From a virus (Duplodnaviria; Heunggongvirae; Uroviricota; Caudoviricetes): a stretch of DNA of 19,784 bases. Below the pieces are notes generated by a model. The model made no database searches, was not told the DNA's origin, and worked only from the letters and a program-made list of their open reading frames with translations. Shown piece after piece: positions 9,099 through 10,273 of the stretch (position 1 is the stretch's first letter; each line of letters opens with the position of its first letter). The position numbers and the translations under genes are program-made. Where the stretch lies: the IMG/VR virus record IMGVR_UViG_2690316049_000007, positions 1-19,784 of that record; one strand, 5' to 3'.

Positions 9099-9142
9099 TT
9101 CCCGCATTTCGGCGGGAATGAGGACCATGACTGTTAAAGAGC
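9099..9142 (-). promoter_or_regulatory. nutR: boxA (GCTCTTTAACA) plus boxB hairpin
   Basis: Minus strand boxA GCTCTTTAACA (9142-9132), spacer, hairpin TTCCCGC-CGAAAT-GCGGGAA (9118-9099), just after the cro stop. Same boxA and the same hairpin core recur after pL (nutL). Confidence 0.65.
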
Positions 9143-9149
9143 AATTTGC

Positions 9150-9335
9150 TTATGCCGCTTTGCGGTAAGCGCTTTCTTGATACTTCAGGGCGCCAGCTGT
9201 AACGACTTCCAGTCGATAGGCGTCTTTCTCTGGGATGACTTCCTTCCACTGAGAGACTGCTGCGTCGCTAATGCCTAACGCTTTAGCTACAGCACGCTGG
9301 GTTCCGAAGTGGTCGATAACATCTTTCTTGTACAT
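9150..9335 (-). CDS. cro: Cro repressor, P22 type (61 aa)
   Basis: MYKKDVIDHFGTQRAVAKALGISDAAVSQWKEVIPEKDAYRLEVVTAGALKYQ... matches P22 Cro as recalled. Divergent from c2 across the operator region. Confidence 0.9.
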   Translation of the reverse strand: MYKKDVIDHFGTQRAVAKALGISDAAVSQWKEVIPEKDAYRLEVVTAGALKYQESAYRKAA

Positions 9336-9349
9336 AGACTCGCTCCGAA

Positions 9350-9415
9350 ATTAAAGAACACTTAAATTATCCACTAAAGGAATCTTAAGTCAAGTTTATT
9401 TAAGATGTCTTAACT
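9350..9415. promoter_or_regulatory. OR region: three 18-bp P22-type operators with divergent pR and pRM
   Basis: ATTAAAGAACACTTAAAT (9350-9367), ACTAAAGGAATCTTAAGT (9373-9390), ATTTAAGATGTCTTAACT (9398-9415), all fitting ANTNAAG-N4-CTTNANT. pR on minus strand: -35 TTGACT (9393-9388), -10 GATAAT (9371-9366). Confidence 0.8.
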
Positions 9416-10066
9416 ATGAAAACTCAATTGATGGGAGAGCGCATTCGCGCTCGGAGAAAAGAACTCAAGATCAGGCAGGCCGCACTTGGAAAGATGGTCG
9501 GCGTGTCTAATGTTGCCATATCTCAGTGGGAACGCTCTGAGACAGAGCCAAATGGAGAGAATCTTCTCGCCCTGGCTAATGCGTTGAAGTGTTCCCCTGA
9601 CTATCTGATGAAAGGAGAGGAAAGTCTTTCAAACATTGCCTATCACAGTAGGCATGATCCAAGAGGGTCATACCCTCTGATTAGCTGGGTGAGCGCAGGA
9701 TGCTGGATGGAAGCTGTAGAACCATATCATAAGCGTGCAATAGATAACTGGTACGATACAACCGTAGACTGTTCAGAAGATTCGTTTTGGTTGGACGTGA
9801 AGGGAGACTCAATGACGGCTCCGGCCGGTCTCAGTATCCCTGAAGGAATGATAATACTCGTCGATCCTGAAGTAGAGCCGCGTAACGGGAAACTGGTAGT
9901 TGCAAAGCTCGAAGGAGAAAACGAGGCAACTTTCAAGAAGTTAGTTATTGATGCAGGCAGGAAGTTTCTAAAACCACTTAACCCACAATATCCGATGATC
10001 GAGATCAACGGAAACTGCAAAATCATCGGCGTAGTTGTCGATGCAAAACTAGCAAACCTTCCATAA
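9416..10066 (+). CDS. c2: Prophage repressor, P22 C2 type (216 aa; HTH N-domain, LexA/S24-like C-domain)
   Basis: MKTQLMGERIRARRKELKIRQAALGKMVGVSNVAISQWERSETEPNGENLLALANALKCSPDYL... and C-terminal ...DSMTAPAGLSIPEGMIILVDPE...KLANLP match P22 c2 repressor as recalled. Confidence 0.95.
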   Translation: MKTQLMGERIRARRKELKIRQAALGKMVGVSNVAISQWERSETEPNGENLLALANALKCSPDYLMKGEESLSNIAYHSRHDPRGSYPLISWVSAGCWMEAVEPYHKRAIDNWYDTTVDCSEDSFWLDVKGDSMTAPAGLSIPEGMIILVDPEVEPRNGKLVVAKLEGENEATFKKLVIDAGRKFLKPLNPQYPMIEINGNCKIIGVVVDAKLANLP

Positions 10067-10067
10067 T

Positions 10068-10089
10068 GGGGCATTCGCCCCTTTTTTTT
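10068..10089 (+). terminator. Rho-independent terminator immediately after c2
   Basis: GGGGC-ATTC-GCCCC followed by TTTTTTTT (10082-10089). Confidence 0.7.
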
Positions 10090-10102
10090 ATTTCCTTTAA
10101 AA

Positions 10103-10186
10103 ATCAAAGACAAACTTAAGTTACGAAAGAAAATTTAAGTTTTCTTCAAAAATGCTCTTGACCATTAATTAAAGAGATCTTAAATT
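10103..10186 (+). promoter_or_regulatory. OL operators and pL promoter
   Basis: 18-bp operators ATTAAAGAGATCTTAAAT (10168-10185) and ATTTAAGTTTTCTTCAAA (10133-10150), plus a degenerate third (10103-10121). -35 TTGACC (10158-10163), 17-bp spacer, -10 TAAATT (10181-10186). Confidence 0.7.
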
Positions 10187-10232
10187 TAAGCCATCAGCAG
10201 GACGCTGGAAGCCAAAAGGAACAGATTGGCAG

Positions 10233-10273
10233 GCTCTTTAACATTGATGGGATTGTCCCGCCGAAATGCGGGA
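10233..10273 (+). promoter_or_regulatory. nutL: boxA (GCTCTTTAACA) plus boxB hairpin
   Basis: GCTCTTTAACA (10233-10243), 12-nt spacer, TCCCGC-CGAAAT-GCGGGA (10256-10273); same hairpin as nutR. Confidence 0.65.

Follow-up and report, generated by a model that had tools for sequence, protein, structure and literature searches.

Putative nutL and nutR sites of the HK620 type, and their probably matched N protein, in a P22-like coliphage

Layout of the immunity region and the two hairpin sites

The window (the whole 19,784-nt stretch of IMG/VR record IMGVR_UViG_2690316049_000007) is DNA of a P22-like phage or prophage of E. coli, with an immunity region ~83% identical to those of P22 and ES18 and ~99% identical to those of the E. 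coli P22-like phages N7, IME10 and CUS-3. Along the plus strand the order is cII/c1, nutR, cro, PR, the c2/cI repressor, PL, nutL, a leader and N (Table 1), with a terminator-like site downstream of the repressor gene. An earlier note had taken two hairpins in this region for nutR and nutL. This assignment is borne out by comparative evidence and by a layout matching those of lambda, P22, ES18 and HK620: each site is on the strand that is transcribed there, with PL and N on either side of nutL and cro and cII on either side of nutR, as annotated in ES18 and HK620. The note also placed each site just downstream of its early promoter, which is true of nutL (~40 nt from the PL-like site) but not of nutR, which lies beyond cro, as in lambda, with the PR-like site (9393-9366) ~220 nt away. 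The leader between nutL and N is 358 nt long.

Table 1. Features of the immunity region and the start of the N operon in the window
Feature	Position	Strand	Basis
cII/c1-type activator, 92 aa, first gene after nutR	8763..9041	-	Pfam Phage_CII 1-91/91 positions, E = 1.2e-42
Candidate tR1-type terminator, hairpin GCACAU-AAGUUG-AUGCGC plus U-rich tail, between nutR and cII	9058..9092	-	consensus-level
nutR boxB AUUCCCGC-CGAAAU-GCGGGAAU	9098..9119	-	8-bp stem; 18-nt core same as nutL
nutR boxA UGCUCUUUAACA	9132..9143	-	9/9 to rrn boxA plus 3 bases of rrn spacer
cro, P22-type, 61 aa, between PR and nutR	9150..9335	-	Pfam P22_Cro, E = 8.7e-28
PR-like promoter TTGACT, 16 nt, GATAAT	9366..9393	-	top promoter-like match in scanned region, 10/12
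c2/cI-type repressor, HTH plus S24 peptidase, between nut sites	9416..10066	+	~83% DNA identity to P22 immC region
PL-like promoter TTGACC, 17 nt, TAAATT	10158..10186	+	position matches annotated P22-type PL in ES18
nutL boxA GGCUCUUUAACA	10233..10243	+	8/9 to rrn boxA UGCUCUUUA; identical to HK620 annotated nutL
nutL boxB UCCCGC-CGAAAU-GCGGGA	10256..10273	+	motif match, folding
20-bp hairpin in N leader, just before N ribosome-binding site	10536..10617	+	folding vs shuffles
N antiterminator gene, 99 aa	10632..10931	+	ARM alignment, 6GOV match
Candidate tL1, intrinsic-terminator-like, 8-bp stem plus T7, downstream of N	11513..11544	+	consensus match

Each site consists of a boxA followed by a hairpin. 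The boxA motif GCTCTTTAACA is found at 10233-10243 (+) and 9132-9142 (-), its sole matches in the window even with one mismatch allowed; it is weak as evidence when taken alone, with 18 of 200 shuffles yielding at least two matches. Both copies resemble the boxA of rrn operons, as had been claimed (nutR 9/9, nutL 8/9). In rrn operons boxA reads UGCUCUUUA, with acaauuua after it, and lambda has CGCUCUUA (PMC2724277). Since P22 has the rrn-like form too, such a boxA is typical of the group. At both sites boxA, the expected NusB/S10 site, lies upstream of the hairpin; the gap, put at 12-13 nt by the earlier note, measures 12 nt in nutL and 14 nt in nutR.

The hairpin core TCCCGC-CGAAAT-GCGGGA is identical at the two sites, as reported before, and occurs exactly twice in the window. 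No further match to this 18-nt sequence (TCCCGCCGAAATGCGGGA; 10256-10273 on the plus strand and 9100-9117 on the minus strand) appears in the window when up to two mismatches are allowed, and none of 200 shuffles gave any match. Both copies fold into a 6-bp stem with a loop that ViennaRNA reports as 6 nt, and in nutR the stem reaches 8 bp (9098-9119).

These are not new sites. The same sequences are annotated as putative nutL and nutR of HK620 in a 2001 GenBank record, so the biology is ordinary and well understood, and the finding itself is of limited value: a textbook regulatory module is confirmed in another P22-like coliphage.

The terminators downstream of the nut sites are candidates from consensus matches. 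In the window the candidate tR1 hairpin has an A.C mismatch at a position where relatives have G-C. The HK620 record puts tR1 immediately after nutR and annotates tL1 and tL2 in the operon that corresponds to that of N. Ahead of N, the 20-bp leader hairpin has a predicted folding energy of -44.5 kcal/mol (z = -3.64), and 0 of 200 shuffles fold equally well. The lambda N leader has a similar hairpin, an RNase III site used in the autoregulation of N, and we take that of the window to be a candidate RNase III and N-autoregulation hairpin.

A structured RNA element in the N leader

A 251-nt insertion (10276-10528) sets the window apart from N7, CUS-3 and HK620; it begins two bases past the nutL boxB. 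It has no annotation in any record. Rfam at the gathering threshold gave no match over the whole window and, at E values up to 10 over 10200-10700, only two chance snoRNA matches; ARAGORN reported no tRNA or tmRNA; and a sequence-string search with the invariant blocks of the element returned unrelated primers only.

A pattern made from the conserved blocks finds the element in at least 120 viral contigs. Enough flank for extraction was present for 116 copies, 102 of them unique and forming 72 clusters below 92% identity. Their consensus structure has 51 pairs in 13 helices and is 94% paired, vs 28-39% when the partners were slid. Both sides had changed in 25 pairs, and 0 of 500 shuffles reached the observed values. 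The insert is one member of a structured RNA family that is widespread, lacks annotation and shows strong covariation.

Other identities were rejected. The element shows no codon periodicity and its indels are not multiples of 3, which speaks against a protein-coding sequence. The inserts of the other leader-length classes are unrelated by nhmmer and are not variants of the same RNA, and the Pas sRNAs differ from the element both in kind and in location. A mini-ORF at the start is common: 78 of 100 unique copies begin with a Shine-Dalgarno sequence, an ATG, 0-3 more codons and a stop.

Copies lie (i) after Q-type antiterminator genes, (ii) after cI/PL and before N, and (iii) after the lysis cassette and before the packaging genes, in phages of Escherichia, Klebsiella, Hafnia and Providencia. 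The element is present in 112 of 5,426 complete E. coli genomes; among the ~84 loci with a window-type N, only 6 carry it. Judging by its location, it may act in cis in long antiterminated operons, with a possible role in processing, stability or translation-coupled control. This RNA family, beside nutL in the window and at module junctions of antiterminated phage operons, is the more valuable by-product of the analysis.

Co-inheritance of boxB and the arginine-rich motif of N

The N protein of the window has a central part and C-terminus of the phage 21/lambda type, onto which a different arginine-rich motif (ARM) is fused. The motif named in the earlier note, NARNRRRARRQAQ, is indeed present, as residues 12-24 of the reading frame, within the longer stretch DDNARNRRRARRQAQREQ encoded at about 10659-10712. 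Lambda N as resolved in the antitermination complex 6GOV matches its C-terminal 37 residues (63-99; E = 1.5e-4), and the window protein thus has both the N-terminal ARM and the C-terminal RNA polymerase-binding segment of a lambda-type N. Since its score against Pfam N_peptide (20.2 bits) is under the 27.9-bit cutoff, its place in the family rests on the alignment and on 6GOV. The ARMs of the window, phage 21, P22 and lambda align in register, with A13, R16, R20 and R21 invariant. Trp18 of lambda N stacks on the boxB loop. The window N is without this residue; Ala28 aligns in its place.

Homologues of this N fall into two N-terminal classes on a common body, the phage 21 type (GTAKSRYKARRAELIAERR) and the window type (DDNARNRRRARRQAQREQ). 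The window-type ARM is also found on a P22/H-19B-type C-terminus, for example in HK620. Among named phages it is carried by HK630, HK140, mEp213, mEpX2, CUS-3, IME10 and N7, and also by JEP4, Gally, ECP1, HF4s and some Stx phages.

That a different N-terminus of N means a different boxB specificity is an established principle (PMC2629481, PMC8022706), and the epsilon34 genome paper makes the general point that a divergent N-terminus predicts a new specificity. That paper was the only match to a literature search on HK620 and boxB, and no experimental study of this N-boxB pair (binding or antitermination) was found in the searchable literature.

Loci with the window-type ARM comprise 81 unique ones with a lambda/21-type C-terminus, 6 with a P22-type C-terminus and a few others. 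All of those with an intact, unrearranged upstream region (~88 unique) have a CGAAAU boxB. Of three apparent exceptions, two are cut off by a contig end, and in the third a rearrangement lies immediately ahead of the N ribosome-binding site. The boxB of loci with the phage 21 ARM is CUAACC (30/30 unique), that of loci with the P22 ARM is GACAA, and a more distant relative with the ARM NAKQRYNARRATEHRE (L010) has yet another hairpin, at both sites. The earlier note had matched this boxB to this ARM, and the match is upheld: boxB type tracks ARM type, with no cross-combination among the ~120 unique loci with the upstream region present, and the pairing holds over six unrelated immunity regions and two different N C-terminal domains.

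For nutL such co-inheritance is partly trivial, because the site is only 110-560 nt from N; nutR is the sole independent test. Six classes of DNA, 1.1-2.8 kb long, occur between nutR and nutL; the five non-window ones share less than 10% of the window's sequence. Window-type nutR is found in 74 unique loci, with 6 types of flank on the cro side and 4 on the cII side in 9 combinations; in 35 of the 74 the cro flank is common to loci that have a phage 21 nutR and a phage 21 N. Homology between immunity classes starts at the cro stop codon and, where the cII type differs, ends at the cII start codon. Therefore nutR is a mosaic segment of its own. These loci form a clean natural experiment in which the boxB type of nutR goes with the ARM of N, a gene at a distance of 1.1-2.8 kb, regardless of the DNA between and around them. 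It shows selection for matched N-boxB pairs in mosaic phages.

The hairpin is itself conserved. All 18 nt of the nutL boxB are invariant in 84 of the 86 loci encoding this N (the 84 being 81 viral and genome loci, N7, CUS-3 and the window). Because boxB is invariant in the main group, covariation of the stem rests on two variant lineages. In one (L172-174), nutR reads AUCUCCAC-CGAAAU-GUGGAGAU, with compensatory stem changes (UCUCCAC/GUGGAGA) and the loop kept; the other (L171) has further variants of the nutR stem. Such comparisons give good evidence that the hairpin is functional, with a loop that would be read by this ARM, and they support a probable matched N-boxB pair. From co-inheritance we infer a distinct specificity for the pair.

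Loop fold, specificity and known systems

The earlier note contrasted the 6-nt loop with the 5-nt loop of lambda. Formally the loop is a hexaloop, CGAAAU, and it differs from those of lambda (GAAAA/GAAGA), P22 (GACAA) and phage 21 (CUAACC) alike, but it is probably not a new kind of loop. A phage 21-type boxB was rejected, the loop being CGAAAU and not CUAACC, and so was a lambda/P22-type boxB, which has a pentaloop (GAAAA/GAAGA or GACAA) closed by a Watson-Crick pair. The combination of UCCCGC-CGAAAU-GCGGGA with the ARM NARNRRRARRQAQ is identical to the annotated sites and the ARM of HK620.

Two precedents bear on the fold. In the phage 21 hexaloop CUAACC, the inner UAAC makes a 4-nt GNRA-like turn and the two outer C residues form a non-canonical pair next to it, and the P22 loop GACAA adopts the GNRA fold with its C looped out (PMC12550061). 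The P22 nutR is formally C-GACAA-C on a CCGC/GCGG stem. Because of these precedents, CCGC-C-GAAA-U-GCGG is most simply read as a true GAAA tetraloop with a C.U mismatch. The nutR boxB hairpins of the window and of P22 were compared by eye and by folding, as MAFFT had misaligned them; by this comparison the window hairpin would equal the P22 nutR hairpin minus its looped-out base. A GNRA-like fold is plausible for the inner GAAA, and the six-base loop is probably such a tetraloop with the conserved C.U mismatch at its base.

What this means for specificity can be read in more than one way. We tentatively suggest that the pair may be a fourth, structurally distinct and orthogonal N-boxB solution, combining a C.U-closed GAAA tetraloop that has no looped-out base with a lambda-like ARM that lacks Trp. 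If true, the looped-out nucleotide of lambda and P22, which lambda needs for the NusA step, would be dispensable or replaced by the C.U flank, and the HK620-type pair would be a new orthogonal RNA-tethering tool. As an uncharacterised specificity class, the pair could in any event extend the tool set drawn from lambda, P22 and phage 21.

A somewhat unlikely alternative is that the nut sites are real and their specificity is not distinct, N and boxB cross-reacting with lambda-type or P22-type partners; strict genomic pairing would then reflect optimisation and not orthogonality. This alternative arises because the loop contains GAAA and because the ARM core, ARNRRRARR, is near those of lambda (AQTRRRERR) and P22 (AKTRRHERR), with which it aligns. 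The boxB, moreover, is essentially the P22 nutR CCGCC-GACAA-CGCGG with the looped-out C lost and one C changed to U, the pentaloops of lambda and P22 both imitate GNRA by extruding one base (PMC12550061), and the requirements of P22 and lambda boxB overlap according to the title of Cocozaki et al. 2008 (cited in PMC8022706). Against it, natural cross-combinations are absent from ~120 unique loci despite a cro flank common to different classes, and the position of lambda Trp18 is taken by Ala28.

It is very improbable that the hairpin is some other RNA or DNA signal (an attenuator or terminator, an RNase III site or a recombination boundary) that is associated with N by hitch-hiking: CUS-3 labels the cI-N interval merely "boundary sequence" and mosaic junctions adjoin the nut sites, but neither hairpin is followed by a U-run, each copy is on the transcribed strand and has a boxA 12 or 14 nt before it, the loop is conserved and not the stem alone, which covaries, the match between nutR and N is kept over 9 flank combinations, and the equivalent positions are annotated nut sites in P22, ES18 and HK620.

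The hairpin pair is almost certainly nutL and nutR, the N-loading sites on the early transcripts of a P22-like phage. Very probably they serve N antitermination of the lambda type, in the HK620 class of specificity. The basis for this reading is the positions of the sites, the matching of their sequences, their co-inheritance with the ARM and the conservation of the hairpin; binding of N to boxB, dependence on Nus factors, the loop fold and read-through of terminators are predicted from it. In such a system, transcripts from PL and PR would carry boxA and then boxB. The Arg-rich N-terminus NARNRRRARRQAQREQ would bind the boxB hairpin on the nascent RNA, host NusB and S10 would bind the rrn-like boxA, and NusA and NusG would join while the lambda-like C-terminus of N contacts RNA polymerase. 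The resulting complex would make the polymerase terminator-resistant, allowing it to pass the candidate tR1-type hairpin before cII (9058-9092, -) and the candidate tL1-type terminator beyond N (11513-11544).

Among known systems, lambda (boxB GCCCU-GAAAA-AGGGC) has the same architecture and the same C-terminal RNA polymerase-binding segment in N, as well as an ARM core RRRxRR and a purine-rich G-A-A-A loop like those of the window. It differs in its shorter boxA (CGCUCUUA), in a pentaloop closed by a U-A pair and in Trp18, which is Ala in the window.

P22, whose N is the gene 24 protein, has GCGCU-GACAA-AGCGC at nutL and CCGCC-GACAA-CGCGG at nutR. In common with the window it has the boxA GCUCUUUA(A/C)C, the nutR stem CCGC/GCGG and a pyrimidine flank, and its N begins MTV(V)ITY, like that of the window. 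It differs in its pentaloop with a looped-out C, where the window has a 4-nt GAAA core, in its ARM (GNAKTRRHERRRKLAIER) and in the C-terminus of N.

In phage 21 (PDB 1NYB) the central and C-terminal body of N is nearly identical to that of the window (73% identity overall). The boxB loop is likewise formally 6 nt, with pyrimidine ends around a 4-nt turn, and is the same in nutL and nutR. The ARM (GTAKSRYKARRAELIAERR) and the turn (UAAC vs GAAA in the window) differ and are never interchanged in natural loci.

HK620 (GenBank AF335538, 2001) is the closest system at the nut sites. It differs from the window in an immunity region with a lambda/HK97-like cro and a 434/L-like cI, in a 90-aa N with a P22/H-19B-type C-terminus (the 99-aa window N being of the lambda/21 type) and in being without the 251-nt insert after nutL. 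Its nutL is identical in boxA, spacer and boxB, its nutR is the same in boxA, spacer, boxB and the following hairpin, and residues 1-38 of its N, ARM included, are encoded by DNA 99% identical to that of the window.

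A structured RNA family next to nutL

The window carries a 251-nt insertion immediately 3' of the nutL boxB that is absent from the related phages N7, CUS-3 and HK620. This insert is a member of a widespread structured RNA family that has so far gone without annotation. The family consensus comprises 13 helices with 51 pairs. In the alignment, 94% of cells are paired, compared with 28-39% for slid controls, and compensatory double changes occur at 25 of the consensus pairs. None of 500 shuffles matched the observed values. A search of Rfam 15 with the insert returned no match.

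A protein-coding reading of the insert was also considered and rejected, the sequence being non-coding. At their 5' start, 78 of 100 unique copies have a Shine-Dalgarno sequence, an ATG, zero to three more codons and a stop.

At least 120 contigs of IMG/VR contain a member of the family, as do 112 of 5,426 complete E. coli genomes, and the phages that carry it have Escherichia, Klebsiella, Hafnia and Providencia hosts. Copies are found in several settings: 3' of Q antiterminator genes, 3' of cI/PL and before N, and 3' of lysis genes.

Features of the window and of compared N/nut loci from other phages or prophages (L001, L008, L010)
Feature	Location	Strand	Remark
Structured RNA insert	window 10276-10528 (core about 10288-10530)	+	adjoins 3' side of nutL boxB
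N-leader hairpin, 20 bp	window 10536-10617	+	-44.5 kcal/mol, z = -3.64
Hairpin 3' of nutR, candidate tR1	window 9075-9092	-	A.C mismatch in stem GCACAU/AUGCGC
cII-type ORF, long form	window 8763-9128; L001 1543-1908	- (window)	open frame up to ATG at 9128
ORF with DRGLTSRDRRRIARWEKRIAYALKN	L008 3303-3647	+	Shimwellia pseudoproteus prophage
L010 nutL	near 2744	+	Intestinirhabdus alba prophage
L010 nutR	near 511	-	Intestinirhabdus alba prophage
L010 N	2992-3276		Intestinirhabdus alba prophage
DnaB-type replicative helicase, 826 aa, interrupted	window 5235-7715	-	split DnaB_C match
Direct repeats, 11 nt, TGGACAACCGT	window 8089-8206	+	inside O-like gene 7690-8580 (-)

The N leader and the region after nutR

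The leader between nutL and N (window 10274-10631; compared loci L013-L092) is a hot spot of insertions. Among loci with the same N, the leader has at least 18 different lengths between 107 and 561 nt, and the inserts, which are unrelated to each other, lie 3' of boxB, within the tip of the long hairpin, or directly 5' of the N ribosome-binding site. Part of this region is labelled "boundary sequence" in the CUS-3 record. Relatives keep the lower stem of the 20-bp N-leader hairpin. This hairpin probably corresponds to the one in the lambda N leader that is involved in RNase III cleavage and autoregulation.

On the nutR side, the stem of the candidate tR1 has an A.C in the window versus a G-C at the equivalent place in N7, CUS-3, HK620 and P22, so that the terminator may be weaker in the window phage. 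The upstream ATG of the cII-type ORF overlaps nutR, and the resulting 121-aa protein is the form annotated in the N7 record. The 92-aa form (start 9041) matches Pfam Phage_CII from end to end; the long start is therefore probably a mis-annotation.

Other N-type loci

In L008, the ORF containing DRGLTSRDRRRIARWEKRIAYALKN lies directly 3' of a phage-21-type N gene. We read DRGLTSRDRRRIARWEKRIAYALKN as the Arg-rich motif of Nun, the termination factor of HK022; should this identity hold, the prophage encodes both an N and a Nun-like protein. The L010 N is a distant relative (40% identity) with the Arg-rich motif NAKQRYNARRATEHRE, and both L010 nut sites have boxA followed by a different hairpin, CUACC-UGAUGCA-GGUAG. 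L010 possibly represents a further, putative N-boxB specificity class.

Replication genes

The Pfam DnaB_C match on the helicase falls into two separate stretches, between which lies a LAGLIDADG-like segment scoring exactly at the Pfam cutoff (22.5 bits). The P-loop GARPKMGK appears to be followed directly by the start of the interruption, whose end appears to lie at ...THN|T, boundaries that suggest an intein with a homing endonuclease. A Pfam search of the O-like gene gave no match. Its TGGACAACCGT repeats form two clusters of three copies each, separated by 66 nt, and are probably origin iterons within a replication initiator gene, an arrangement that likens the O-like gene to lambda O.
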